Notes under the pieces: model-generated
Seen by the model: the letters and a program-made list of their open reading frames with translations, nothing else
What the model was told of the DNA's origin: nothing
Databases searched by the model: none
Shown here: piece after piece, positions 5,896 through 18,354 of the stretch
Position numbering within the stretch: the first letter of the stretch is position 1
How the letters are laid out: each line of letters begins with the position of its first letter
Translations under genes and position numbers: made by a program
Source of the DNA: Pseudomonadota bacterium
Lineage (GTDB): Bacteria; Pseudomonadota; Gammaproteobacteria; Burkholderiales; SG8-39
Reading direction: 5' to 3'
Length of the DNA: 39,154 nucleotides
Assembly (NCBI GenBank): GCA_021813275.1
Contig: JAKALD010000003.1
Coordinates: forward strand, 1-39,154

Positions 5896-6264
5896 GGGGG
5901 CGACCTGGTTTCGACGTGGGTCGCGAAGCAGCGCAGGGCATGCCGAGGACCAGATCACCTCGCAAATCCAGTCTGGAAACACACAAACGCCAACGACGAG
6001 CGTTTCGCTCTCGCGGCCTAACACCCGCGGGACGCTGCACTAGCCTGCTGATGGGCTAGGCCCTCGAAAGAGGGTGCAGCGTCATTCACATCAGCCTCTC
6101 TTCCGGGTCTGGCCGCTTGGCCCGGGGGATCCGTCGAAGCGGCTGGCCAAGCGTCAGCCCGCCGGCCGGCGGTCGCGAGGCGAGATCCAAATGGCCAGGC
6201 TAAGCATGTAGGCCTGACTGCGGAGGACTTACGGACGCGGGTTCGATTCCCGCCGCCTCCACCA
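5896..6264 (+). ncRNA. ssrA: tmRNA; tag peptide ANDERFALAA encoded at 5989-6021
   Basis: 5' GGGGGCG pairs with 3' CGCCTCC-A-CCA including the G3:U alanine determinant; GGTTCGATTCC T-loop; internal frame GCC AAC GAC GAG CGT TTC GCT CTC GCG GCC TAA. Confidence 0.98.
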
Positions 6265-6478
6265 TAAATTCAAAGTGTTATGTATTATTGGGGCGTTTTG
6301 GGGGCTAGACCCCGCCCTGCTGCGCCAGTGCCCAACCGATCCTAAGCACTTCCCGCCTGTGCCAGTACGTCCTGCGTCGCCTTCTGCTGCTTGTCCGGCC
6401 CATAGCCGCACTTGCGCAGGACGCGTACCCGTCAATTAAGCGGCTCGCTAGGGGTACGCCTCGCGGGCGACGTTGCAC

Positions 6479-9400
6479 CTAGGCACGCAGCACCGTGACG
6501 AACTCCGCCAGGATCGCAACACGTCCGGCGTCGTCTTCTGTGAGCACGATCGGCTGAAAATCCGGATTCGTCGGCGACAACACGACGCGCGTGTGCCGCC
6601 AGCCGCCCTCGTCGTTGCCCTCCTTCTCGGACGAGTAGCGCTTCACCGTGAACGCGCCGCCGGTCTCGGGGTCCGCAGGCCCCCGATACTGCGCGAGCAC
6701 AATCTTCCCCTGCCTCGTTCCAGCCGGTTTCGCCCGAAAAACGATGTAGTCGCCGTCTCGGATGGTCGGCTCCATCGACCGGCCAACAGCCCGGCACACG
6801 AACATCCGGTCGTCGATTCGCCCGACGCCGTCGGCCTCTACCCAGCCTTCGGGCTCCACGGCCTCGCCACTCCCGAAGTACCCTGCTGCGGCCTTAAGCG
6901 TATAGATCGGTAGCAGGGACCTGAAGGCATCGCGCCTCACGCGCTCGTCCTCTAGCGAGATCAAGCGGAGCTGCGGCTCCGGGCGGGCCCGAACCAACGC
7001 ATCGGAGAGCTCCGCCAGCGACCGGACACCCCCCGCCAGCGCGGCCTCCAACTTTCGTTGCTGCACGAACATGTAGCGCCATTGCCCATACTTAGTGGCG
7101 CTCATCTTCTCGCACCAGAGTCGTGCCGCCTCGCTCTTCAACGCCGTGTTCGGCCGAATCTCGCCTTTGGTCTCCGCGAGCCACATGACCTCGCGACCGT
7201 CCTGGTCGCGCGCAGCGATCATAAAGTCCGGGTAATACTGCCGCGGCCGGTTGCTCTCATAGTAGGTGACGGAGAACCCCAGCCGCTCGTTCTTGAAGTA
7301 GCGGACGACGTCCTTCGCGCCATCGAGGAAATCGGCGAAGCGCTTCTCGAGGTCCGTGTGACACGGCACCTTGTTGGTATGACAACGCTTGCCCTCGGCG
7401 ACGATTCCGGTCCACTGGAAGCGGCGCAGGTTCGCCGAATCGAGCCACTCAGGCGATCCGAGGATCGGCACCGCCTCGACGCCCGCCACGCCTGAGCCGC
7501 GGATCGCGTTCTCCAGCACGTCCAAAGCGGGACCTCGCCAGTACGGGATGCCGATGTCGCGCGGGTCGCTTCGCTGTCCGCCGACCTCCATCGTTACCAC
7601 GCGCCGGTCGACGTATCGCCGGCTCACCTCAAGCAGCTCCTCGAACGTGGGGCCAATGCCAAGCTCCGCCGCCTCTCCTGGGTTGGTCTGCTGGTGCAGT
7701 TCCTCGGCAATGCGGAAGGCGCTTCGCAGTGTCGGCCACTCGGCACGGAACTCCTCGAGATGCATCACGATCTCCGGTGCGCCGCCCACGACGGGTCTCA
7801 TCCGCACGTCCGGAGGCGTCTCTTTCGGGTTGATCCGGATCTGCGGCAAGTCCTCCACCCGGATCAAGTCCGCCAGCGACTCCGCCACGCCGACCGCCCA
7901 CGACCGCACGTTCGGCACCTGCACGCGGTACTTCGCCTTCTTCGGATCGGCCTCGATCCAGACCGGCTTCTGGCCCCACTCGCCGGTCTTGGGACGCTTG
8001 CGCTTCTCGACCGGGAAACCGACGAAGGGGATGCCGAAGGCGTCCACCGTCTCCTCGCTTCCCTCCGATCGTTCCTCGATCGGCTGGTTCAGCACGTCGT
8101 AGTTCGTGCGCCGCAATCCTCGACCGATGATTTGCTCGGTAAGGAGCGGCGAACCGAAGGCGCGCAGGCCGAGGATGTGCGTGACGCTCTTCACGTCCCA
8201 GCCCTCGGAGAGCATGTTCACGCTCACGATGGCGCGCACGTGCTCGCCAGGCTTTCCCTTCGAACCGACGGTGTTCACCATTTCGCGCAGCACCGCTTCG
8301 TTGCCCTTGTCGGCGTCGAAGACCTTGGAGTCGATCGGGATCGTCATCCAGCGCGTGCGGTCGTCGTCGTCCGGGTTGCGCAGCAGCTCGTACTCTCGGG
8401 TGAGGTGCTCGAAGAGCCACGCTGCACGCTGGGCACTGTCCGTCACGCAAAGGAGCACGGGGCTCGGCCCGGCCCGCATCGTCTCGAACGTGCCCGACCA
8501 CTCGTCGTGATCCTTCCTCCACGAGGAATAGATGCTCGCGATCGCGCCCTTGCAAGCGCGCAGGTACTCCTCCTTGGTCCTGGCGCCCTTCACCAGATCC
8601 CACAAGTCGAGATACACCCGCCCGTGCTCGTCCGGGTCGGGCAGGCGCACGACCTTCACCAGCCCAGACTCGAACGCGTCGTAGACCGAGAAATCGCAAA
8701 CCAGCCATTCGAAGAGCGTGCCCTCCGGCTTCGGCGAGCCGGAGCCGTACCAGGGCGTCGCCGACAGGTCGATCACCAGGCTCACGCGCGCGGCCTTGCC
8801 GATGCGCTGGAGGATCTTGCTCCACTTGATGTGTTCGGGCTCCTCACCCTTCCGGCCGCGCTTCTCGCCGTAGACGTGGTGCGCCTCGTCGTTGATCACC
8901 ACGAGGTCGCGCCATCCGCCGAGCAGCCGCCGGATCGGCGCGTTCGGGTCTTGCCGGGCACGACGCTGCATAGCGCGCAGCACCGCCTGCGGGACGAACC
9001 GCCCCTCCTCGAGCGGCACCTCGCCCTCGCCGATCCAATCCTCGCGCTTGTTCTCGAGTGGGATGCCCTGCCAGTTGCGCACCAGCACGTTCGGGTGGAA
9101 CTCCTCCCGGTACTCCGGCGGCACCATCTCGAAGCCGTCGTACAGGTTATGCTCGCCAGACGGCTCGAGCCCGTCGCCGCGCGGCTGCCCGCGCACTCTA
9201 TCGCGCACCGTAAGGTTCGGCACAAGCACCAGAAAGTTCGCCGAGAGCGACGAGCCGCTCACCTTGCGCTTGTGCAGCGTCGCCCAGGTGACGAAGAGCG
9301 CCATCACCACGGTCTTGCCGGTCCCGGTCGCGAGCTTAAGTGCGTAGCGCACCAGGTCGCCAGTCTCCGGCATCTTCCTCCGGCCCTGCACCTCGTACAG

Positions 9401-9799
9401 GTAGATGACCGTCTCGACCGCCTCCTGCTGGCAGAAGAAGAAGCGCTTGCCAGTCGCCTGGCGCTCCTCGTCGCGCTCGAACCACCACTCGAGCAGCCGC
9501 CGCGTCACCACCGCCGTGCCCTGGTAGCCGGCCTCGCGCCACGCGCGCACTTCGTTGCGGAGTTGGTTGACGAACTCGTTGAGTTCGGCAGCAGAGGCCG
9601 AGAGGTCGTCGAACAGCTGCGCTTCCTTCCCGACGACGCCGGCGATGCCGCCCTTCACGTCCTTGGCGGAGGCGAGGAAGCGCATAGAGGGACGGCGAGT
9701 CTCGACGCGCTTCGAGCGCCCGCCCGGCAGGAGCTGGTAGTGTCGGTCCGGCTCGCGGAAGGCGTCGCAGATGACGACCCGATCGACAACGTAAGCCAC
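6479..9799 (-). CDS. Type III-like restriction subunit (SF2 helicase + PD-(D/E)xK nuclease) with C-terminal S24 peptidase domain
   Basis: ATGTGKT Walker A, DEAHH, SAT, MLSEGWD, QIIGRGLR helicase motifs; YYPDF...AETKG nuclease; C-terminal AAAG...GRSMEP...TVKR LexA-type peptidase motifs. Confidence 0.88.
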   Translation of the reverse strand: MAYVVDRVVICDAFREPDRHYQLLPGGRSKRVETRRPSMRFLASAKDVKGGIAGVVGKEAQLFDDLSASAAELNEFVNQLRNEVRAWREAGYQGTAVVTRRLLEWWFERDEERQATGKRFFFCQQEAVETVIYLYEVQGRRKMPETGDLVRYALKLATGTGKTVVMALFVTWATLHKRKVSGSSLSANFLVLVPNLTVRDRVRGQPRGDGLEPSGEHNLYDGFEMVPPEYREEFHPNVLVRNWQGIPLENKREDWIGEGEVPLEEGRFVPQAVLRAMQRRARQDPNAPIRRLLGGWRDLVVINDEAHHVYGEKRGRKGEEPEHIKWSKILQRIGKAARVSLVIDLSATPWYGSGSPKPEGTLFEWLVCDFSVYDAFESGLVKVVRLPDPDEHGRVYLDLWDLVKGARTKEEYLRACKGAIASIYSSWRKDHDEWSGTFETMRAGPSPVLLCVTDSAQRAAWLFEHLTREYELLRNPDDDDRTRWMTIPIDSKVFDADKGNEAVLREMVNTVGSKGKPGEHVRAIVSVNMLSEGWDVKSVTHILGLRAFGSPLLTEQIIGRGLRRTNYDVLNQPIEERSEGSEETVDAFGIPFVGFPVEKRKRPKTGEWGQKPVWIEADPKKAKYRVQVPNVRSWAVGVAESLADLIRVEDLPQIRINPKETPPDVRMRPVVGGAPEIVMHLEEFRAEWPTLRSAFRIAEELHQQTNPGEAAELGIGPTFEELLEVSRRYVDRRVVTMEVGGQRSDPRDIGIPYWRGPALDVLENAIRGSGVAGVEAVPILGSPEWLDSANLRRFQWTGIVAEGKRCHTNKVPCHTDLEKRFADFLDGAKDVVRYFKNERLGFSVTYYESNRPRQYYPDFMIAARDQDGREVMWLAETKGEIRPNTALKSEAARLWCEKMSATKYGQWRYMFVQQRKLEAALAGGVRSLAELSDALVRARPEPQLRLISLEDERVRRDAFRSLLPIYTLKAAAGYFGSGEAVEPEGWVEADGVGRIDDRMFVCRAVGRSMEPTIRDGDYIVFRAKPAGTRQGKIVLAQYRGPADPETGGAFTVKRYSSEKEGNDEGGWRHTRVVLSPTNPDFQPIVLTEDDAGRVAILAEFVTVLRA

Positions 9800-9813
9800 G
9801 AGTTACACTGCCG

Positions 9814-10026
9814 TTACGAATTCACCAGCGAATCCCACGCCGCTCGCCAGGTCGGCTTCTTCGCATTGAATTTGTACCAACGAAGTCCGCCGATGGAAAT
9901 AACGAGGGTCCCTTTGTGCTTTTTGCCCCATTTGTCCCACACCTTGATCGAGATCCCCTTCTTCCCTAGCCAGACAGATTCGTCGATGTCTAGCTTTGCC
10001 CACTTACTCGGTTTTCCCTTGGCCAT
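9814..10026 (-). CDS. Small basic Trp/Lys-rich hypothetical protein (70 aa)
   Basis: ATG with strong AGGAGG RBS; fills the gap between the MTase and Res genes in the same orientation. Confidence 0.75.
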   Translation of the reverse strand: MAKGKPSKWAKLDIDESVWLGKKGISIKVWDKWGKKHKGTLVISIGGLRWYKFNAKKPTWRAAWDSLVNS

Positions 10027-10049
10027 CCCTGTTTCCTCCTTTCGCTTCC

Positions 10050-12563
10050 TCAGATCAGATCTCTAACTACCGTGGACTCGTTGCCGTACACGTCCACGAC
10101 CTTCACTGCAATCCGCTTGTACCCCCGTACCGGGAACGGCTCAGAGTCGAGCTTTAGCGAAAATTCTTCCGGGTCCACCTCCACTCTTAGCGCGGCCTTG
10201 ATGTTCGGCGCTTTCTTGAAGTCAAAGAACATCTGGCAGTCCACGAAGCAGTCGCCGTCGTAGTCCTCGTCGAGATACCACGCCGATACGTAGCCCGAGT
10301 CCGCACCCTTGTACTCGGTCGTACGGCGCTTGCGGTCGAAGAGGGCCACGCCCTTGAGCGTGACACGGAGCTGCTTCTCCTTGCCGTCCTTTGCGGCCTT
10401 AACCTCGATGTCGGGCAGCGCGAGCGGAGAAAAAAGCGTCTCCGGCTGGGTCGCCTTGAGCCCCTCGGCAAGCGTATCCGGGCGGATCATGATCAGCTCG
10501 ACCTTGACCTTGCCCCGCTTCTCGAGCTGCGACTTCACTTCGCCGACGTTAGCCTCGAAGGCCCAGCCGAGCACGTGCACCTCAAGGATGCCGGAGGCGA
10601 GCGCGTCCTGGACGGCGTCGTTAATCTGCTTGCCGGTCACTCGGCCCGAGAGCGGCCCGATAGACATTGCGATCTTCGCGTTCTCAGTCTCCGCCACCGC
10701 GTGCACGAGCCCCGTCGCACCCTGGATTGCCGCATCCCTCCGATAGAGGCGGCAGACGACCTCGATGTAGTTCTCGAGTTTTGCCGCCTCACCGATCCCC
10801 GGCTCCCGGACGACGTAACCCTTCCAGTCCTCGACGGAGTAGCGGCCGAGGGACATGACTTCGAAGGGCCCTGTGACCCGGAGGGCAGATTCGTCCACCT
10901 CTGGCTTGTCTACCAACAAGAGATCGCCTGTCTCCCGCTCGTTCGAGACCGCACCCAACGTCACCTTTTCTGGCGACTCATAGACAAATCCGCTCCCCAA
11001 ACCCTGACCCCAGGTCTTGAAGTGCGGGAACACGGCAGCCAGAATTGCCTTTCGGGCGACGTTGATCGCAACTCGAGAAGTGTCACATGTGATCCAGCGC
11101 CTCCCCCATCGTTCACTGCATAACGCAGTCACGCCGGATCCGCAGGTAATGTCCAGCACCAAATCTCCAGGGCCGGTGGTCATGTGTATACAGCGCTCCA
11201 CTACCTTCTCCGACGTTTGCACAGCGTAGCGCTTGCCACTTGCGCCCTGAGTGTCGCTCCAGAGGTTCGTTACCTCCATGTACGGAAAGTCATCAAAGAA
11301 GAACACGTACTGAAGGCTGTCGCCTGGGGCCTCCAGTCGACGCTGCTCTATCAGGCGCTTCATGCCAGCCGGATTAGTCTTCCAGCTGTGGCCTTCGCGC
11401 GGTGAGAACTTCCTCCCTTCAAACTTTACGTCGAAGACACACGAAGGTGTCAGGCCCGACGAATTCAAGTCAATCAGGCGGTAGATCTTGGCTCCGTCCG
11501 GAAGTGACGTCGGGTCCTCCCGTTCTTCATCCGACATTGACCGGCGACTGCCGTCCGGAAGTTCAACACGAGTAAACTGCGTACCGGATCCTACGCCTCG
11601 GTCGGTGTAGATCTTTTGGTAGCGGACCTGTGGCTTGTCCTTCGAGTACCACAGCAGATAGTCGCAAATGCCTGCGAGTAACGTATTGCGAAGCGGAATC
11701 TTCGTACGGAAGGAAATCTGAGCAACGAAGTTGGACGCACCGAACACTTCGTCCATCAAGGCCCGTGCCCTGTGGACGTGCTCGTCCCCAATCTGAACGA
11801 ACACGCTGCCGCTGCCCCGGAGCAACTCCCGGCAGAGATACAGCCGCTCTTCGAGATACGAGAGCCAAGAATGAACCCCAAGCGCCCATGTATCTCGAAA
11901 TGCCTTGATGGTCAGGACATCGTCGGCTGATTCGTTTTCCTTGTTCTTCGTCGAATCCACCCGCTGCTGGAAGTTCGAGTCGTACTTGATGCCATACGGC
12001 GGGTCGATGTAGATCATCTGCACTTTGCCGCGTAGGTTCTCGTAGTGGAGCAGCGACTCCATCACGTGCAGCGAGTCGCCGCAGATAAGCTTATTCTTCC
12101 AACCCTCCTCGTGGGTGTAGAACTCGACGCGCTTGCTCCGGTCGGTCTCGCGCAGCGTCTTCTCGAGGTCGGCGAAGAGGTGCCCCTGGCGCGCCGCACC
12201 TGACTTCTCCTCGGCCGCCCGGCGCGCGCGCTCGATGATTTGCGCGATGCGCGACTCGGACACGATCTCGTTGCGCTGGAGCGGCAGCACCGGCACCTCG
12301 CGCCGGTTGCGCTTGCCCGCCCAGAAGAGCACCGGGTCCGCCGCCGGGTCCATGTCCACGACCACCGGCCGCTCGTCGCCCTCCGGCAGCTTGCCGACGT
12401 GAATGGCCTTGCTCCAGCCGTTGTCCATCGGCAGCGTCACCATCTGGTCCTCGGCCGGCAGGAGAGACGTGTGCCCGGTCTCGGGCGCGCGCGGCTCCTT
12501 GATGTCCTCGTAGGTGTAGCGGGTGACCTTCTTCTCAGCCTTGGGCTTCGGGGTGCGGGCCAT
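10050..12563 (-). CDS. Site-specific DNA methyltransferase (Type III Mod-like, beta class)
   Basis: NKLICGDSL, catalytic IDPPYG precedes SAM-binding LDITCGSG (motif order IV-TRD-I); C-terminal VKVVDVYGNE; start set at ATG 12563 (MARTPKPK) with AGGGA upstream. Confidence 0.92.
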   Translation of the reverse strand: MARTPKPKAEKKVTRYTYEDIKEPRAPETGHTSLLPAEDQMVTLPMDNGWSKAIHVGKLPEGDERPVVVDMDPAADPVLFWAGKRNRREVPVLPLQRNEIVSESRIAQIIERARRAAEEKSGAARQGHLFADLEKTLRETDRSKRVEFYTHEEGWKNKLICGDSLHVMESLLHYENLRGKVQMIYIDPPYGIKYDSNFQQRVDSTKNKENESADDVLTIKAFRDTWALGVHSWLSYLEERLYLCRELLRGSGSVFVQIGDEHVHRARALMDEVFGASNFVAQISFRTKIPLRNTLLAGICDYLLWYSKDKPQVRYQKIYTDRGVGSGTQFTRVELPDGSRRSMSDEEREDPTSLPDGAKIYRLIDLNSSGLTPSCVFDVKFEGRKFSPREGHSWKTNPAGMKRLIEQRRLEAPGDSLQYVFFFDDFPYMEVTNLWSDTQGASGKRYAVQTSEKVVERCIHMTTGPGDLVLDITCGSGVTALCSERWGRRWITCDTSRVAINVARKAILAAVFPHFKTWGQGLGSGFVYESPEKVTLGAVSNERETGDLLLVDKPEVDESALRVTGPFEVMSLGRYSVEDWKGYVVREPGIGEAAKLENYIEVVCRLYRRDAAIQGATGLVHAVAETENAKIAMSIGPLSGRVTGKQINDAVQDALASGILEVHVLGWAFEANVGEVKSQLEKRGKVKVELIMIRPDTLAEGLKATQPETLFSPLALPDIEVKAAKDGKEKQLRVTLKGVALFDRKRRTTEYKGADSGYVSAWYLDEDYDGDCFVDCQMFFDFKKAPNIKAALRVEVDPEEFSLKLDSEPFPVRGYKRIAVKVVDVYGNESTVVRDLI

Positions 12564-12580
12564 ATCGGTCTTGTCCCTCG

Positions 12581-15340
12581 TCACTTGGTTCCGGCAACGG
12601 CTCGGCCGGTAGTGCACATGCCACGATAGTCGCAGGCTCCGCACTTCTTCGGCCCCGCCACGGTCGGCAGCGAAGCCGTGCGAAGTGCCTCGGCCGCTTC
12701 GCGGACCTTCGACTTCACGTCTGCGATGAAGTCGTCGTCCACCGACCGCGGCTTGCGCTTGCGCTCGTCTAGCTCGTAGATCTCGACGTAGTCCGGCCGC
12801 CGGCCGGTGAGGTCCTGGTAGCCCAGCGCGTACACGTGGAGCTGCGCCTCGGTGACCTCTTCGGGCTGGGCACGGTCGGTCGACTTGAGATCGACGATCG
12901 TGGTTTCTCCGGTGTCGATGCGACGGACCAAATCGATGCGCCCGACGATGCTTACGCCGTCGCCGAGACTCACCTCGATCTGCTTCTCCGAGAACTCGAT
13001 CTTGTCGAACAACGCCGCGTTGTCGGCCAGGTAGTCGCGGAGCACGCGTTCGGCCGTCGCCTCGAGCTCCTGCCGGAGCGCCGGGTAAGCGTAAGGCGCG
13101 TGCAGATGCGTCTCGACCAGCCGCGGCACCTCGCTCGCGTTGGCCACGTCGCCGCGCAGGGCGCGAGCGTGCACCTCTGCCAACGCGTCATGCAGCGACT
13201 TGCCGTAGCCCAGCGCCTCGTGGATCGGCGCATTGAAGCCGTACAGGATGCGCAGCTTGAACTGGTAGGGACACTCGAAGAAGTACTTCAGGTCGGAGAA
13301 GGAAAAGACGACGTTGGCGACGCCAGCGCGCGGTCTCGGCGGGAGGCGCTTGCGCGTCGAGTAGTCGGGCGCGCGGCGTTTGACGTACTTCGAGGCGAGG
13401 ATGTCGTCCCAGAACTGCGAGCGCTTCTGGAAGAGCTGGTTGCCTGGGATCGGCGCCCAAGTCAGGTGCAGGAATTTCTGGCTACGCGTCATGGCGACGT
13501 AGAAGAGCCGCCGTTCATCCTCGATCGTCCCCTCGAAGCGTACTTGCCCCTTGATGCCGGCACGCGGCAGCAGATGCCAAACATTCCGCCCGCCTGGCTT
13601 CTTGGCGGGAAACCGGTTCTTGAGCAGTGCAGGCACGAACACCACCGGCCACTGCATCCCCTTGGCCTGATGGATGGTCATGATCCGCACGGCGTCGAGG
13701 TTGGCGTACTGATTGTCCTGCCAGCCCTCAGGGTAGGCGTCCTCGGCGCGGTACTGCAGGAAGTCGGCGAACGAGCCGTACTTCTCGACCGGCTTCGACT
13801 GGAAGTGGATCGTCTCGAAGTCCGAGATGACCTGGCTGAACTTGCCGAGGTTGTAGAAAACCACTTCGCCACGGCCGCCTGGAATCAGCTCCTCGCGGAC
13901 ACCGGCCTGCTCGAGGAACGCTAAGAAGACGCGCTGGATCGAGTACTGTCCCCAGCGCCTCTGGTCGGGATCGATCAACGCCGCCTTGGCAGCGGCAGCA
14001 CCCGCGATCGCCTGATCGAGTGCTGCCGGTTCGAGGCCGAGACCGGCGGACTCCCAGGCGGCTTTCAAGGCTGCGGCGTCCACTCCCGGTCGATCGGCGA
14101 TGAAGTAGAACAGCTGCCGGGCAGCTCCCGCCTCGGCAGTGCCGAACAGATTGGTCATGCCGGTGACGACGAACGGGATTCCGGCCGCCCGAAGAGCTCG
14201 CGTGATGGGCTCGGCGTTCGCCTTCACGCTGCGGAGCAAGACCGCCATGTCGGACCACGACAGGCCACGCTCGACCTCGTCCTCCTTGAACGCGACGCCG
14301 CGGAGAGCTCGAATCGTCTCGACGATGTGCCGGGCCTCGGCATCCGGATCGGCGAACGACAGTGCCACGACGTCGCCGCTCTCGTAGGGCTGCGCGCCGG
14401 TCGGTTTCATCGCCTTCGTGAGCCGCGCGCCGTTCTGCTCGATGAAGCCGCGCGCCGTCTCAATCACGCCCTCGCATGAGCGGAAGTTCTCCTCCAGAGG
14501 AATCTGCTCAACGGCCGGGTAACGTCTCTCAAACGTGAGGATGTTCTCGACGTCGCTGCCGCGCCACTGGTAGATAGTCTGGTCGTCGTCGCCGACCACG
14601 CAGATGCGCGCCCCCAGTTCGTGCAGCGACCAGACGATCGCTTCCTGCACGGGGTTGACGTCCTGATACTCGTCCACGATGACGTACTTCACGCGCTCGG
14701 CGACCCGTGCTCGCAGGCCCTGGTCGTTGGTGAGGAGCGTCACAGCCTCTTCGAGGATCGACGAGTAATCCAGGTAGCTCTTGTCATCGAGCAGCTTCTG
14801 GTAGGCCGGGAGGCCGTTGAGTACGGAGCAGCCGTTGAGCTGAGCATCGTCGCGCTCCGCTTCTCGCAGGATCGACAGCGCAGTGACGTAGTGCTTTGTG
14901 TCGAGATAGCGCCTCAGCGCGGCACCGTTGAGGTCTGTAGACGTGGTGAGCCCGCTCTTGCTGCTGTTCCGATCGACGAAGAGCCCCTGCTGGACCTCGT
15001 TCAGGACCTCGAACTTGAGGTGCTTCGGCGATTCGGACTTCAGAAGCTCCAAGCAAAAGGCGTGGATCGTGCCGACGAACATCTCTGCCATCCCGGGCAT
15101 GTCGCCAAGCGCCTGGCGGGTGCGCGTGACGATCCGCTCCTTCAGTTCGGCCGCGGCCTTGTCCGTGAAGGTGAAGGCGATGATGTTGCGCGGGGCAAGC
15201 GAGTCTTCTCTGCCCGGCGTCAGCAAATGGACCACGCGCCGTGCGACGACCTCGGTCTTTCCCGAGCCGGCGCAAGCGATGAGCTGCAGGTTGCGGCCAT
15301 CGAACTCAATGGCCTTCTTCTGTGACGCGGTGAGTTTCAT
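12581..15340 (-). CDS. UvrD/PcrA-like SF1 helicase fused to a 4-Cys PD-(D/E)xK (AddB/Cas4-like) nuclease
   Basis: AGSGKT, TFTDKAA, VDEYQD, VGDDDQTIYQWRG, TIHQAKG, ERRLFYVAMTR; C-terminal CPYQ...GRID...IVDLK...QLHVY...CGACDYRGMC. Confidence 0.92.
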   Translation of the reverse strand: MKLTASQKKAIEFDGRNLQLIACAGSGKTEVVARRVVHLLTPGREDSLAPRNIIAFTFTDKAAAELKERIVTRTRQALGDMPGMAEMFVGTIHAFCLELLKSESPKHLKFEVLNEVQQGLFVDRNSSKSGLTTSTDLNGAALRRYLDTKHYVTALSILREAERDDAQLNGCSVLNGLPAYQKLLDDKSYLDYSSILEEAVTLLTNDQGLRARVAERVKYVIVDEYQDVNPVQEAIVWSLHELGARICVVGDDDQTIYQWRGSDVENILTFERRYPAVEQIPLEENFRSCEGVIETARGFIEQNGARLTKAMKPTGAQPYESGDVVALSFADPDAEARHIVETIRALRGVAFKEDEVERGLSWSDMAVLLRSVKANAEPITRALRAAGIPFVVTGMTNLFGTAEAGAARQLFYFIADRPGVDAAALKAAWESAGLGLEPAALDQAIAGAAAAKAALIDPDQRRWGQYSIQRVFLAFLEQAGVREELIPGGRGEVVFYNLGKFSQVISDFETIHFQSKPVEKYGSFADFLQYRAEDAYPEGWQDNQYANLDAVRIMTIHQAKGMQWPVVFVPALLKNRFPAKKPGGRNVWHLLPRAGIKGQVRFEGTIEDERRLFYVAMTRSQKFLHLTWAPIPGNQLFQKRSQFWDDILASKYVKRRAPDYSTRKRLPPRPRAGVANVVFSFSDLKYFFECPYQFKLRILYGFNAPIHEALGYGKSLHDALAEVHARALRGDVANASEVPRLVETHLHAPYAYPALRQELEATAERVLRDYLADNAALFDKIEFSEKQIEVSLGDGVSIVGRIDLVRRIDTGETTIVDLKSTDRAQPEEVTEAQLHVYALGYQDLTGRRPDYVEIYELDERKRKPRSVDDDFIADVKSKVREAAEALRTASLPTVAGPKKCGACDYRGMCTTGRAVAGTK

Positions 15341-15597
15341 ACCGCGCGACTGTGAGGCGCGGCGTACGACAACCCGGCGACGCGAGCCGTGCGATGCGCC
15401 AACTCTCCCTCGCGCGACTGGTTCGACGACAACACGCCATTCGCGAGCACGAAGCCAGCTACGCCCCCATGCGTGAGGTAGTGGACGACGCGCTTGTATT
15501 CCGCGGCGTCGATCCTGCCGCGCAGCGCATCGGCCAGCTGCCGAAGTTGCGCTTCATACCCTAAAGTCGCACCGTTTGCCGCAATCTTCTTCGCCAC
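15337..15597 (-). pseudogene. hsdM: Internally deleted Type I RM modification subunit (hsdM) relic
   Basis: GATLGYEAQLRQLADALRGRIDAAEYK resembles the HsdM N-terminus and is joined directly to GVAGFVLANGVLSSNQSREGE, resembling the post-catalytic HsdM segment; the SAM and NPPF motifs are absent. Confidence 0.78.
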
Positions 15598-15846
15598 GCC
15601 CCTACCCCTTTTCTTGCTCAATTTCACCATATCATTGCACGGTGGCATCACCAATTATCCGGCCTCCTACACAGTCCGGAGCCCCAGACCCTACTCAAAG
15701 CCCGTCAACCCTAAGCGCCACCCAAAAGAGCCGCAACCTGCGCGCCAGGTTCCCTGTCACCCGGTTGCTGATTCACGACGCGGGCCGCCGCGTCGCTTCG
15801 CAAAGCTTGAAGATCTTAAACGCGCCGCCCGGCGCGGGTCGTAGCT

Positions 15847-15940
15847 GTCCCTTTCTTTCGCCCCTCATCTTCGAGTGAAGGGGACGAAAGCGTGAGCCGC
15901 TGGAGCAAGCCGCCAGAGCCTGGCGGCTAAAGCGTCTCCA
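15847..15940 (+). ncRNA. Structured element upstream of radC (candidate radC RNA/ssDNA motif)
   Basis: Hairpin CTTTCG-CCCCT...AGGGG-A-CGAAAG (15855-15890) and TGGAG...AGCCGCCAG-AGC-CTGGCGGCT...CTCCA (15901-15940), located in the radC leader. Confidence 0.55.
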
Positions 15941-16028
15941 AAGCAGAACCTCCCTCTCCCGTCCCCCAGAGGAGGCGAAGAGAACTCCGCATGAGCAGCA
16001 GTTTTTTCACAGCGCACAGGAGGCGCAC

Positions 16029-16661
16029 ATGCTGCTCAGCAACGAAGTAACCCACGCAACCGACCTCGACCTGCTCACCGTTGTCCTCGGCAACCGCAGC
16101 ACAGCCGGAGCACTGCTCAAGAAGGCCGGCGGATCGCTCTCCAACCTGCTCCACGCCATACCTTCCGAGAACGGGGATCTTTTCTGCGCCCAAGGCTCGA
16201 GCGCCTACGCGCCGGGCCCGATCGCCAAACTACAAGCAGCACGCGAGCTTGCAGCGCCCGGCATCGCGGAGAATCTGAGGGGACGGGATTGTCTGACGAG
16301 CCCGGGAGCGGTGCGGGACTTCCTCAAGCTACGGCTTGCGGGGCGGCCACACGAATTCTTTGTCTGTATCCAGCTCGACGCGCAGCATCGCGTAATCGCG
16401 ATCGAAGAGCTTTTCCGAGGGACACTGACGCAGACGAGCGTTTATCCGCGGGAAGTCGTCAAGGCCTCGCTACGGGCGAACACCGCAGCGGTGATCTTTG
16501 CGCACAATCACCCCTCGGGCGTCGCGCAGCCGAGCCAAGCCGACGAGCTCCTGACCCGCACGCTCAAGGAAGCCCTGGCCCTGGTGGACGTCAAAGTCCT
16601 CGATCACTTCGTCGTCGCAGGCACGAGCACGCTTTCCTTCGCCGAGCGCGGCCTGCTCTGA
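16029..16661 (+). CDS. radC: RadC-like JAB/MPN domain protein
   Basis: [24 protein letters not shown]...[19 protein letters not shown]; AGGAGG RBS. Confidence 0.93.
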
Positions 16662-16729
16662 TCCACAACTGCGCGGAGAACCCTCGCGAAGCGCCAGCGA
16701 TGTTCCCCTCGCGCGCCCCTGCCCAGCGC

Positions 16730-16930
16730 TCACGACTTCAAGAGCTTTGGATGCCGCTTTTTCAACCACTCGAGAACGCTGTCCCGCAGCTCACTCGCCA
16801 GCTCGTGAATTTCCCGCGCCTCGCGCTCGGACATCACGCCGGCAGACTCGCAGCATGAGGCACGATGCGCGCCGTACGCGCGCGCTTTCTCAAGTACGGG
16901 TGCATCAACGCCTGACAACGAGCCTAACGG
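16730..16930 (-). pseudogene. C-terminal fragment of a HEPN-like partner of the MNT gene
   Basis: ESAGVMSEREAREIHELASELRDSVLEWLKKRHPKLL resembles the C-terminal helix of proteins encoded downstream of wHTH-nucleotidyltransferases; no credible start of its own. Confidence 0.55.
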
Positions 16931-17007
16931 GCCGAGCCGAAAGGCTCGACCTCCTGCAGTCCAAGAAGAGGCGAGGGGCACACATCCCCTCGCGCACCCC
17001 ACCCGTC

Positions 17008-17370
17008 CTACGCCGCGCGCTTCTCGATCGGCCTAACCCCCAGACGAAGCCCGGTAGCGGCAAGTAGCGCACTGAGACTTCGAAGTTCCGGATTTCCCGC
17101 CTTCGAGAGCATTCTGTACACCGCCTCACGAGTGAGTCCCGCGCGACGTGCCACTTCCGCAATGCCGCCCTGCGCCTGCGCGATCTGACGAAGTGCCAGC
17201 AGGATCGCGCCTTGGTCGCCGTCCTCGAGCACGGCCTCGAGGTAGCCGGCAGCATGAGCCGGGTCCTTCAGCTGGTCGATGAGCCAGGGCTCGTACGGCA
17301 CGCTAGCGGGAACCGCGCGGCCTTTGCCGCGCGGTGCGCGCCTTGTAGTCCTTGAAGTACTCTTTCGCAC
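17008..17370 (-). CDS. Addiction-module antitoxin, HTH (HigA-like); start uncertain
   Basis: LKDPAHAAGYLEAVLEDGD...ALRQIAQAQGGIAEVARRAGLTREAVYRMLSKAGNPEL...LLAATGLRL. Confidence 0.88.
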   Translation of the reverse strand: MRKSTSRTTRRAPRGKGRAVPASVPYEPWLIDQLKDPAHAAGYLEAVLEDGDQGAILLALRQIAQAQGGIAEVARRAGLTREAVYRMLSKAGNPELRSLSALLAATGLRLGVRPIEKRAA

Positions 17371-17650
17371 GCTCGATGTCCTTATCCTGCGTCCTCTTGT
17401 CCCCTCCGCGAAGGAGAAGCACCACCACCTGGCCGAGCCGCGCGAAATAGACGCGGTAGCCCGGGCCCCAATCGATCCTCAGTTCCAGCACGCCTTCGCC
17501 CACCGGCTCGGTGTCGCCGAAGTTCCCTTGTGCCAGACGCGCAAGCCGCGCCTCTATCCGGCTGACCGCTTGCACGTCCCGCAAACCGAGCAGCCAATCG
17601 CGGACCGGTTGCCTGCCCTCCGCATCCTGGTAGAAGTAAATCTCGAGCGT
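17303..17650 (-). CDS. RelE/ParE-family addiction-module toxin (HigB-like); canonical start codon missing
   Basis: Frame reads TLEIYFYQDAEGRQPVRDWLLGLRD...GNFGD...VGEGVLELRIDWGPGYRVYF...GGDKRTQDKDIERAKEY; the homologous start position is ACG at 17650. Confidence 0.85.
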   Translation of the reverse strand, partial: TLEIYFYQDAEGRQPVRDWLLGLRDVQAVSRIEARLARLAQGNFGDTEPVGEGVLELRIDWGPGYRVYFARLGQVVVLLLRGGDKRTQDKDIERAKEYFKDYKARTARQRPRGSR

Positions 17651-17679
17651 GATTGTAACCTAAAGGTTGCCCAAGGGGT

Positions 17680-17777
17680 AACTCGCGCTCGACAATCGCG
17701 GACAGCGCCGCGATTTCTTCGGCGCTCGACTCGTGCGGGCTAAGCCACTTATTTCTTTGCCAGCCGGCCAAGCTCAT
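17680..17777 (-). pseudogene. N-terminal fragment of the HEPN-like partner gene
   Basis: MSLAGWQRNKWLSPHESSAEEIAALSAIVERE; ATG overlaps the MNT gene end by 29 bp; similarity stops where the addiction-module promoter begins. Confidence 0.6.
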
Positions 17778-18354
17778 GCTCGTCCCCGATCAGGAACATC
17801 TTCTCGCCCTTCAGCACCGTGCGCAGGAAATGCTGCTCCGCCGCGAGCCTGGCCCGGAAATCCTCCGGCGCATACACCGAAGGGTTGATCTCGCGGCCGA
17901 TCGCCTTCTGCGCCTTGCCGAGCGCGTCGGAAACCTCCGCGAAGGACGCTTCCCCGATCACCATGACGTCCACGTCGCTCGCGCGCCGCTCGGTCCCTTT
18001 CGCGATCGACCCGTAGACGAACGCGACGCGGATCCTGTCGGCAAGCGGCGCGAGCGCTGCCCGGACCGCATCCCCTACCCCCGCGGTCTTTGCGACCAGG
18101 CCACGCAGCTCGGCGTAGATCGGCGAGCCCGGGTTCGCCTGGTAGTACACCTGCCGGCCGCGCACCGCGCGTCGGACCACCCCGGCGCGCGCGAGGAACT
18201 CGAGCTCGCGCTGCACTGCGCCGCGCCCGAGCCCGCCGAGCTGGATCAGGCTCTCCTGGAGGTGCTCCTCGTCGGCGCGCGAGTACAGGAGCGCCAGCAG
18301 CGTCTGGCGCGTCTTGCCGAAGAGCGACGGTGCCGCTCCGGGGATGGCCCTCGC
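17749..18354 (-). CDS. wHTH + minimal nucleotidyltransferase (MNT) antitoxin-like protein, 5' end disrupted
   Basis: Open frame SLFGKTRQTLLALLY...LGRGAVQRELEFL...YYQAN (wHTH) then VYGSIAKG...SDVDVMVIG (GS/DxD NTase motif); in-frame TAG at 18357-18355 and no ATG/GTG/TTG before the HTH. Confidence 0.8.
   Translation of the reverse strand, partial: ARAIPGAAPSLFGKTRQTLLALLYSRADEEHLQESLIQLGGLGRGAVQRELEFLARAGVVRRAVRGRQVYYQANPGSPIYAELRGLVAKTAGVGDAVRAALAPLADRIRVAFVYGSIAKGTERRASDVDVMVIGEASFAEVSDALGKAQKAIGREINPSVYAPEDFRARLAAEQHFLRTVLKGEKMFLIGDEHELGRLAKK

Follow-up and report, generated by a model that had tools for sequence, protein, structure and literature searches.

The closest described relatives of the locus treated here were reported in silico by Hudaiberdiev et al. 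2017 (PMC5704561), where, in the section on pfam12705, fusions of a UvrD helicase to a Cas4-like nuclease (UvrD-Cas4) constitute one clade, and the commonest neighbourhood of this clade is a Type III methyltransferase (Mod) with its restriction subunit (Res), sometimes together with WYL/HTH or Schlafen-like genes; the same section predicts an ancillary role in defence for the fusion. On the strength of that report the three-gene core is already known on paper, and in the literature searched it is the only paper joining UvrD-Cas4 with Type III restriction-modification (RM), with no later follow-up found. Such a core is present in contig JAKALD010000003.1 (assembly GCA_021813275.1, Pseudomonadota bacterium), and the window, i.e. 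the 39,154 nt analysed here, is the entire contig of an assembly that resembles a metagenome-assembled genome (MAG; 3.67 Mb in 376 contigs). Four co-oriented open reading frames (ORFs) are located on the minus strand in the order UvrD-Cas4, Mod, a 70-residue protein, and a Res that carries a LexA-like S24 peptidase tail. Judged from the sequences, the locus is probably a horizontally mobile Type III-like RM system, with UvrD-Cas4 as an accessory end-processing nuclease and with a putative damage-sensing autoproteolytic brake on Res. As far as our searches reach, the Res-S24 fusion, the family of restriction-associated S24 tails to which it belongs and the recurrent small gene are new. The features of the operon are as follows.

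12581-15340, minus strand: UvrD-Cas4 helicase-nuclease, 919 aa (Pfam)
10050-12569, minus strand: Mod, beta-class DNA methyltransferase, 839 aa (Pfam, PADLOC)
11250-11732, minus strand: hypervariable centre of Mod, residues ~280-440, likely target-recognition domain (from the drop in identity)
9814-10026, minus strand: ORF of the 70-residue protein, with a strong Shine-Dalgarno sequence, AAGGAGG, upstream
6479-9799, minus strand: Res with S24 tail, 1106 aa, GTG start (Pfam)
6980-9799, minus strand: Res core, residues 1-940, superfamily 2 (SF2) ATPase and C-terminal PD...ExK (Pfam, motifs)
6479-6979, minus strand: LexA-like S24 tail of Res, residues 941-1106 (Pfam, hhalign)
6881-6886, minus strand: predicted self-cleavage site between Ala972 and Gly973 in KAAAGYFG
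6776-6778, minus strand: codon of the predicted nucleophile Ser1008 in GRSMEP (conservation)
6641-6643, minus strand: codon of the predicted partner Lys1053 in TVKRY (conservation)

When one genome per species was scanned, 43 loci (L004-L046) were found, every one of them from a MAG, with a Res 65-92% identical to that of the window and distributed over more than 12 phyla (Acidobacteriota, Pseudomonadota, Actinomycetota, Chloroflexota, Planctomycetota, Bacteroidota, Gemmatimonadota, Nitrospirota, Verrucomicrobiota, Binatota and others). By tblastn 29 of these loci have a UvrD-Cas4 gene ahead of Mod in the same orientation, corresponding to 29 of the 30 informative loci, since in 13 of the 14 loci without it the contig breaks off no more than 540 nt from Mod or Res; the homologue is fragmentary in a few of the 29 (L025, L026, L042 and L044). 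UvrD-Cas4 and Mod are separated by 60 nt or less at 18 of 28 junctions, usually by 12-27 nt, and Mod and Res by 23 nt or less at 30 of 38. A preliminary description of the locus had set conservation of the UvrD-nuclease beside mod-res as a test in advance, and with 29 of 30 informative loci the linkage is real and the locus more than a plain Type III system. Clustering of all ORFs in the flanks of the loci gave no further conserved neighbour; clusters spanning 5 and 9 loci were discarded, being ABC-type ATPases and antisense artefacts of high-GC DNA.

UvrD-Cas4 is a single polypeptide with a UvrD-like superfamily 1 (SF1) helicase and a C-terminal PD-(D/E)XK/Cas4-like nuclease (Pfam UvrD-helicase 1e-55, UvrD_C 2e-32, PDDEXK_1 1e-27 and Cas4 1e-7). 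The NCBIfam matches to PcrA, UvrD, RecB, AddA and Cas4 are partial and all below their cut-offs, and PADLOC finds only generic models, GajB and RTasHel for the helicase and Cas4 and DruK for the nuclease, the Cas4 models matching the C-terminal 280 residues. The GSGKT and DEYQD motifs, the Asp, Lys and QxxxY of the nuclease and four Cys are conserved in 27/27 homologues, and it is from this four-Cys pattern that the earlier 'FeS' label of the nuclease would follow. A protein with UvrD and Cas4-like parts, ZomB, is described in the available part of a preprint (bioRxiv 10.1101/2020.06.16.154153) as an ATP-dependent nuclease on duplex DNA. Degradation by UvrD-Cas4 of the ends made by Res is what we infer here, in line with the preliminary description and with the authors of the 2017 report, and both the processing of cut ends by the UvrD-nuclease and a proteolytic regulation, as the preliminary description had proposed them, are reasonable suggestions.

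Mod is, as expected of a Type III system, a beta-class amino-methyltransferase with a central variable target-recognition region (Pfam N6_N4_Mtase 9e-30; PADLOC MTase_III PDLC03632, 431 bits). Its start was set at the ATG matching the starts of the homologues, a longer GTG ORF extending to 12644. The motif DPPY(G), found in 31/31 homologues ahead of a CGSG motif for S-adenosylmethionine, is of the m6A type and suggests that m6A is the modified base. Residues ~280-440 have a mean identity of 29-43% to 30 homologues, while the N- and C-terminal blocks flanking them have 75-94%, and a second variable stretch at residues ~520-560 has 32% (31 sequences); the first of these coincides with the GC minimum of 0.56 at 11001-12000. 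Such a variable centre between conserved flanks would be expected of a target-recognition domain that can be exchanged, and this variability supports a working RM system with many specificities. In L009, L011 and L030 Mod carries, or is preceded by, an additional N-terminal segment of ~100-120 aa (LKRQIL..MTR.QLK....G...VD.RS), explaining UvrD-Mod gaps of 320-1000 nt, and in L041 the Mod gene is disrupted by a transposase of the ISL3 family (6458-7867).

The core of Res has the build of a Type III restriction subunit, an SF2 helicase-like ATPase followed by a PD-(D/E)XK endonuclease (Pfam ResIII 3e-11, Peptidase_S24 7e-10, and RE_endonuc 8.5e-4 with 19.6 bits, under the cut-off of 23.4), and TGTGKT, DEAHH, QIIGRGLRR and PD...ExK are conserved in 32/32 homologues. 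The catalytic motifs, which had been noted as intact in the window, are kept in the homologue alignments of UvrD-Cas4, Mod and Res alike. Of 8000 proteins scored in a search of 5.8 billion, 1708 are related to Res at E<=1e-10, and the best 120 clusters are 1101-1120 aa long, contain S24 and ResIII, are 81-93% identical and come, where the source is named, from many phyla. The full Res has no counterpart among PDB chains at E<=0.01, and the PADLOC REase_III models reach 45 and 34 bits over short stretches.

In a quick maximum-likelihood tree (IQ-TREE) of the Res core the order of the loci is wholly discordant with taxonomy, a locus from Rhodanobacteraceae and one from Dehalococcoidia being, for instance, sisters with branch lengths of 0.03, and several loci lie inside megabase contigs. 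The discordant tree together with the megabase contigs indicates that the spread across phyla is real horizontal transfer and not mis-binning. The pattern for Res had no match in viral contigs. Of 72,556 plasmid records in PLSDB 48 match Res, all with less than 60% identity, and the plasmid matches among the 15 listed are ~28-29% identical and mostly annotated as the BPTD_3080 family; with the genome loci all from MAGs and no plasmid record at 60% identity, a carrier in culture did not turn up in the collections searched.

The C-terminal 166 residues of Res match Peptidase_S24 in Pfam with 39.1 bits against a cut-off of 23.3, and hhalign aligns a profile of 27 tails to the LexA of the same genome with a probability of 93.5% (E 2e-7), pairing GRSME with GMSMR, TVKRY with TVKRL and LSPTNPDFQPI with LLPENPDFAPI, so that Ser1008 and Lys1053 are aligned to their counterparts. 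As in S24 peptidases the Ser/Lys dyad is found in conserved motifs with an Ala-Gly scissile pair upstream of it (AAA/G at 970-973); Gly973 is located 35 residues before Ser1008, and the VAAG of the genome's own LexA 34 residues before its Ser. Ala (LexA and CI) or Cys (UmuD) before Gly make up the known scissile pairs. Both Ser and Lys are conserved in 24/24 tail-bearing Res, and so is the AAAG site, with Ser for Gly in one of them. The earlier suggestion of a working peptidase is thus borne out as far as a LexA-type dyad and an Ala-Gly site can indicate an autoprotease. With the tail alone as query, only C-terminal domains of LexA were found in the PDB, and weakly (E 0.03-0.07); a prediction of a complex of two tail copies gave a score of 0.00 and returned no answer. 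In L030 (21459-21845) a stand-alone ORF of 128 aa is 72% identical to the S24 tail and lacks the AAAG region; it is located ~8 kb downstream of the system, and adjoins an ORF that by eye only resembles the metal hydrolase YgjP.

The tail is not confined to Res. Searching 1.84 billion representative proteins with its profile gave 2208 matches at E<=1e-3 and 358 at E<=1e-30, and among the best 150 the domain architecture of 115 was scanned with Pfam, the 35 left out being all of at most 215 aa. These 115 proteins, 57 of at least 350 aa and 58 shorter, belong to one S24 tail subfamily with the consensus LPLYSLxAAAGxFG...GxSMEP...TVKRY. Ahead of the tail in the 57 longer proteins there is ResIII in 14, a Schlafen group-3 helicase in 9, a Type ISP specificity domain in 7, Eco57I in 4 (Eco57I/MmeI-type), N6_Mtase in 4, a Type I S subunit in 3, MZB, DEAD and GIY-YIG in 3 each, SWI2/SNF2 in 2, and AlwI, LlaJI, HsdR_N, DUF3427 and others in single cases. 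Among the 58 shorter proteins 8 are XRE-HTH repressors, and most of the others with a recognised domain are fragments of restriction proteins. The Ser is invariant in 57/57 and 58/58, conservation is 90% or more for the Lys, two Ala and the Gly, and a strict pattern counts AAA/G in 47 and AAC/G in 26, i.e. at least 73 of the 115, with most of the remaining also having AAAG. We read the tail as a portable module, apparently still catalytically live, that is mostly attached to DNA-cutting immunity proteins. An S24 tail on restriction enzymes was not described in the literature searched, judged by titles and the beginnings of abstracts; mentions of S24 in the Millman preprint turned out to be table numbers with no relevance to the S24 peptidase.

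The C-terminal domains of LexA-type proteins are dimerisation domains, and the tail could accordingly have lost cleavage and serve only in dimerisation or in binding to the RecA filament. To our knowledge all of the partner enzymes need two cooperating molecules to make a double-strand break, which we count in favour of such a role, and yet the invariant Ser and the Lys and Ala/Cys-Gly positions conserved to at least 90% in 115 diverse proteins are hard to explain without catalysis, making a non-cleaving tail very unlikely.

The tail was found in 27 of the 43 genome loci and is missing in 9, the end of Res being out of view in 7. Tail-less Res end at about residue 932-945 and keep the same partner genes, and they are scattered on the tree beside tail-bearing sisters, for instance L016/L017 and L023/L015, both on starred branches (L021 is marked S24-negative in the tree only since its contig ends, and is to be disregarded). 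By this distribution the tail is an add-on to a self-sufficient enzyme, one lost or gained repeatedly on an otherwise complete Res. A rival reading makes the tail a trigger, so that full-length Res is held inactive or tethered and active Res is released by self-cleavage induced by activated RecA, arising from phage replication or after resection by UvrD-Cas4 of the first cuts. Res cut at 972 would exceed the natural tail-less forms, presumably active with the same partners, by only ~30 residues, and the operon encodes its own helicase-nuclease producing single-stranded DNA (ssDNA). Activation upon damage to the host would, however, raise the risk of self-killing and is sensible only as abortive infection, and the tail is found also on XRE-HTH repressors (8/58) and on Type I S subunits (3/57), where cleavage is expected, by analogy with LexA, to dismantle the protein. 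A trigger therefore appears rather unlikely, and the control by S24 is better seen, by analogy, as a brake. This preference is drawn from the expected dismantling of the repressors and S subunits that bear the same module, from EcoKI, for which the available text of the sources describes damage-triggered proteolysis of a restriction subunit by ClpXP, and from the cross-phylum spread, which fits with an easier establishment in unmodified hosts.

In the proposed mechanism Mod would methylate an asymmetric target on the host DNA, its variable central domain setting the specificity, and Mod-Res would cut unmodified incoming DNA by means of the SF2 ATPase and the PD-ExK nuclease. UvrD-Cas4 would then load on the ends, unwind and degrade them, so that the break becomes irreparable with no need for the RecBCD or AddAB of the host. 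RecA on ssDNA stimulates the cleavage of LexA-like proteins, and might in the same way stimulate the cut between Ala972 and Gly973, detaching the tail from Res. Such a cleavage would be a damage-triggered brake, a built-in restriction alleviation, protecting the cell at times when its chromosome lacks the modification or is broken, for example just after entry into a new host. The 70-residue protein would be an optional accessory recurring at the Mod-Res junction. LexA fragments are degraded by ClpXP according to the part of a preprint that was available (bioRxiv 10.1101/2020.07.14.201889). A more specific candidate, in which the AAA-COOH end exposed by cleavage would be an ssrA-like degron for ClpXP, was put aside: the idea goes back, reportedly, to work by Neher and colleagues in 2003, and it is weakened by the 26 tails whose cleavage would leave an end in AAC.

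Several points weigh against this reading. Res has a Type III-like architecture but is by its scores a member of neither curated Res family, reaching 20.1 bits against the cut-off of 564 for the Type III Res family NF012027, and 581 bits against 800 for the nearest one, BPTD_3080 (NF046055; in the genome search as two stretches of 317 and 265 bits), and the match of its endonuclease domain is, as said, under the Pfam cut-off. No experimental work on the UvrD-Cas4/Mod/Res core was found in the literature searched. The AlphaFold2 models have a mean confidence (pLDDT) of 46.7 for the S24 tail (27-row alignment), and of 64.8, with a beta-rich layout, for the 70-residue protein (12 rows), in both cases too low for a usable fold. 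That cleavage of the tail depends on RecA is assumed from the LexA analogy, and at least one LexA-like protein is RecA-independent according to the available text of PMC7101444; no result decides between brake and trigger. In L019 the 4 kb ahead of Mod contain no UvrD-Cas4. Two lineages of UvrD-Cas4, ~66-85% and ~46-50% identical to the protein of the window, pair with similar Res, and the pfam12705 section of PMC5704561 records UvrD-Cas4 also with Dcm/Vsr or alone; with two lineages, intervening genes and such other contexts, the coupling of UvrD-Cas4 to Mod-Res may be loose. The lineage with 46-50% identity is found in L035, L038, L043, L103, L105, L107 and L113, where Res is 68-92% identical, and its presence beside similar Res suggests a module exchange.

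These last points lead to a view of UvrD-Cas4 as lying outside the restriction mechanism, with a separate, single-gene function in defence or repair and travelling with mod-res in defence islands. Divergent lineages do occur with similar Res (in L035 Res is 92% and UvrD-Cas4 48% identical), genes can intervene before Mod (the 1051-aa helicase-PLD protein described below, an RNase T-like exonuclease, a ParD-like protein), the role was called ancillary in the part of PMC5704561 that gives the Dcm/Vsr and solo contexts, and UvrD-Cas4 is missing in 15 of the 16 BPTD_3080 loci that were extended, as is the S24 tail in all 16. Against a separate function stand the same strand in 29 of 30 informative loci with usually 12-27 nt to Mod, a divergence that tracks that of Res in most loci, and L089, a BPTD_3080 locus with the order Mod-Res-UvrD-Cas4 and a UvrD-Cas4 56% identical to that of the window, which suggests repeated recruitment of UvrD-Cas4 to this kind of RM system. 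We regard a function apart from restriction as quite unlikely and keep UvrD-Cas4 as the accessory nuclease of the system, which, given the two lineages and the inserts tolerated before Mod, may work in trans rather than as a subunit.

The 70-residue protein is basic and rich in Trp, Lys and Gly, and matches no family in Pfam, NCBIfam, PADLOC or PHROGs (best E in PHROGs 0.32). Among 5.8 billion proteins it has four homologues at 57-77% identity, and the ESM Atlas gives only unnamed clusters (score 0.88). The homologues are 67-79 aa long and nearly all are preceded by GGAGG; G46, G47 and W50 are invariant and R49 nearly so, with G, W and D positions among the invariants. The gene is missing from 43/43 genome loci. 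A scan of metagenomes with the alignment of the family gave 11 loci, in five of which (L103, L104, L105, L107 and L113) it is located exactly at the Mod-Res junction, Mod and Res lying 246-254 nt apart wherever the two ends can be seen, and another five are short contigs without this system. In L106 (1928-2770) a homologue is located directly upstream of a gene resembling a Type I S subunit, in an island where a SMODS cyclase and, judged by eye only, the N-terminus of an HsdR-like protein occur as well. We take the protein for a real but uncommon accessory with a tendency to settle in RM operons; that it resembles a controller or binds DNA is a guess, prompted by where it lies and by its basic, Trp-rich composition. 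The four genes had been presented as one system, and as an obligate unit this does not hold, the small gene being present in 0/43 genome loci and at the Mod-Res junction in 5/11 metagenome loci, and the S24 tail being optional.

Other genes also occur at the junctions of the operon. Between Mod and Res a DUF2283 protein with a PBECR2-like putative toxin (under the Pfam cut-off) is found in L011 (9445-9944), L006 and L026, with a similar pair in L008, and in L035 (6879-9934) there is a CBASS-type oligonucleotide cyclase (PADLOC 423 bits) with a DUF4062/HATPase_c_4/Fic-like_C protein. Between UvrD-Cas4 and Mod, a protein of 1051-1062 aa combining an SF1 helicase (AAA_11/AAA_12), a PLD domain and a topoisomerase-type Zn-ribbon is located in L008 (3457-6612), L016 (4292-7447) and L027 (2010-5198), and matches the Mokosh MkoA/MkoC models. 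The recurrent inserts indicate that the operon is a landing pad for other defence and toxin-antitoxin genes.

In the window the operon is convergent with the gene for tmRNA, with 214 bp in between.

5896-6264, plus strand: tmRNA gene ssrA, tag ANDERFALAA (ARAGORN), putative left border of the island

The preliminary description had co-oriented genes next to ssrA, as is the case, and gaps of 14-23 bp, for which the measured spacings from UvrD-Cas4 to Res are 11, 23 and 14 nt. The operon belongs to a stretch of lower GC from ~6.3 to 18 kb (0.56-0.66 against ~0.70 around it). No second copy of the tmRNA 3' end is located elsewhere in the window, no convincing direct repeats bound the island there and no att repeat was seen, and the window ORFs that were scanned include no integrase; the best explanation is a decayed genomic island adjoining ssrA. 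A scan of 6200-16100 for promoters and terminators gave 0 promoter-like and 5 terminator-like signals, with 6.8 of the latter expected. The rest of the island (15337-18216) contains an ORF of 105 aa that resembles the N-terminus of HsdM by eye and has no family match, a RadC/JAB protein (16029-16661), an HI1420-type antidote protein (17008-17370) and an MntA-like nucleotidyltransferase (17749-18216). A second, starred ARAGORN 'tmRNA' at 6169-6573 overlaps the true ssrA and the 3' end of Res and is probably false.

Restriction enzymes endanger their own host, and what is known of how they are restrained upon damage or after arrival in a new cell comes mostly from Type I enzymes, by way of the ClpXP of the host. 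A self-cleaving LexA-type module in many types of restriction enzymes would, if true, be a general and portable restraint, and a direct link between the SOS signal and innate immunity. It is conceivable, if doubtful, that the tail acts on many DNA-cutting immunity enzymes as a portable damage-sensing 'fuse', RecA filaments, as a sign of broken or unmodified host DNA, triggering the self-cut by which the nuclease is untethered or destabilised. Such a fuse could explain the spread of the operon at 65-92% identity across more than 12 phyla, and UvrD-Cas4 would then supply both the kill step and the ssDNA signal, independent of the end-processing enzymes of the host. Environmental bacteria carry UvrD-Cas4/Mod/Res, predicted in 2017, in abundance. 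How the tail works is what most deserves a test, and the collected sequences offer concrete constructs and mutants.

Compared with the system of PMC5704561, the locus has the same UvrD-Cas4 fusion and the same Mod and Res beside it, the two features by which membership is judged; the main text of that paper, as far as available, has no S24, no small gene, no account of a spread across phyla and no experiment. Neither UvrD nor S24 is mentioned in the available portion of a 2025 review of RM (PMC12707154), nor UvrD, S24, LexA or Cas4 in PMC8259958, on an m4C Type III system. With the classical Type III enzymes EcoP15I and EcoPI it shares mod upstream of res, a beta-class methyltransferase with a variable centre and a Res with SF2 ATPase and PD-ExK, but its Res is only remotely related to theirs, and the operon has a third conserved gene and a protease tail. 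With BPTD_3080, for which no paper was found in the literature searched and whose Res exceeds the threshold of the family in 24 of the 401 genomes that were sampled in the phylum of the window, the match of Res spans profile positions 2-961 and the partner Mod is 36-43% identical, whereas the identity of Res is 26-30% and the order there is mostly Res then Mod. The genes DrmA, DrmB and DrmC of DISARM and PglZ, BrxC and BrxL of BREX, whose absence the preliminary description had noted, are not among the PADLOC matches of Mod, the 70-residue protein or Res, nor among the 25 listed of the 67 matches of UvrD-Cas4. AddAB/RecBCD, ZomB and Gabija GajB, the top PADLOC match, have like UvrD-Cas4 an SF1 UvrD-like motor with or beside a nuclease, but here it is a single polypeptide with one Cas4-like domain, and ZomB is likened by architecture; the locus is not a Gabija system, the GajB models matching the helicase part only and PADLOC finding no GajA among the four genes. 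LexA, UmuD and lambda CI have in common with the tail the Ser-Lys dyad, an Ala/Cys-Gly site ~35 residues upstream of the Ser and LxPxNPxFxPI, but they attach the module to a DNA-binding or polymerase-accessory domain, unlike Res, where it is located on a restriction enzyme of 940 residues and contains an insert, GPADPETGG...EKEGNDEGGW. For Type I enzymes, the available parts of PMC4231737 and PMC12707154 describe damage-induced proteolytic restriction alleviation, and EcoKI with ClpXP has in common with the preferred brake that a nuclease subunit is shut down by proteolysis when the host DNA is at risk; there the protease of the host acts in trans on HsdR, whereas here it would be built into Res, and the likeness is a functional analogy only.

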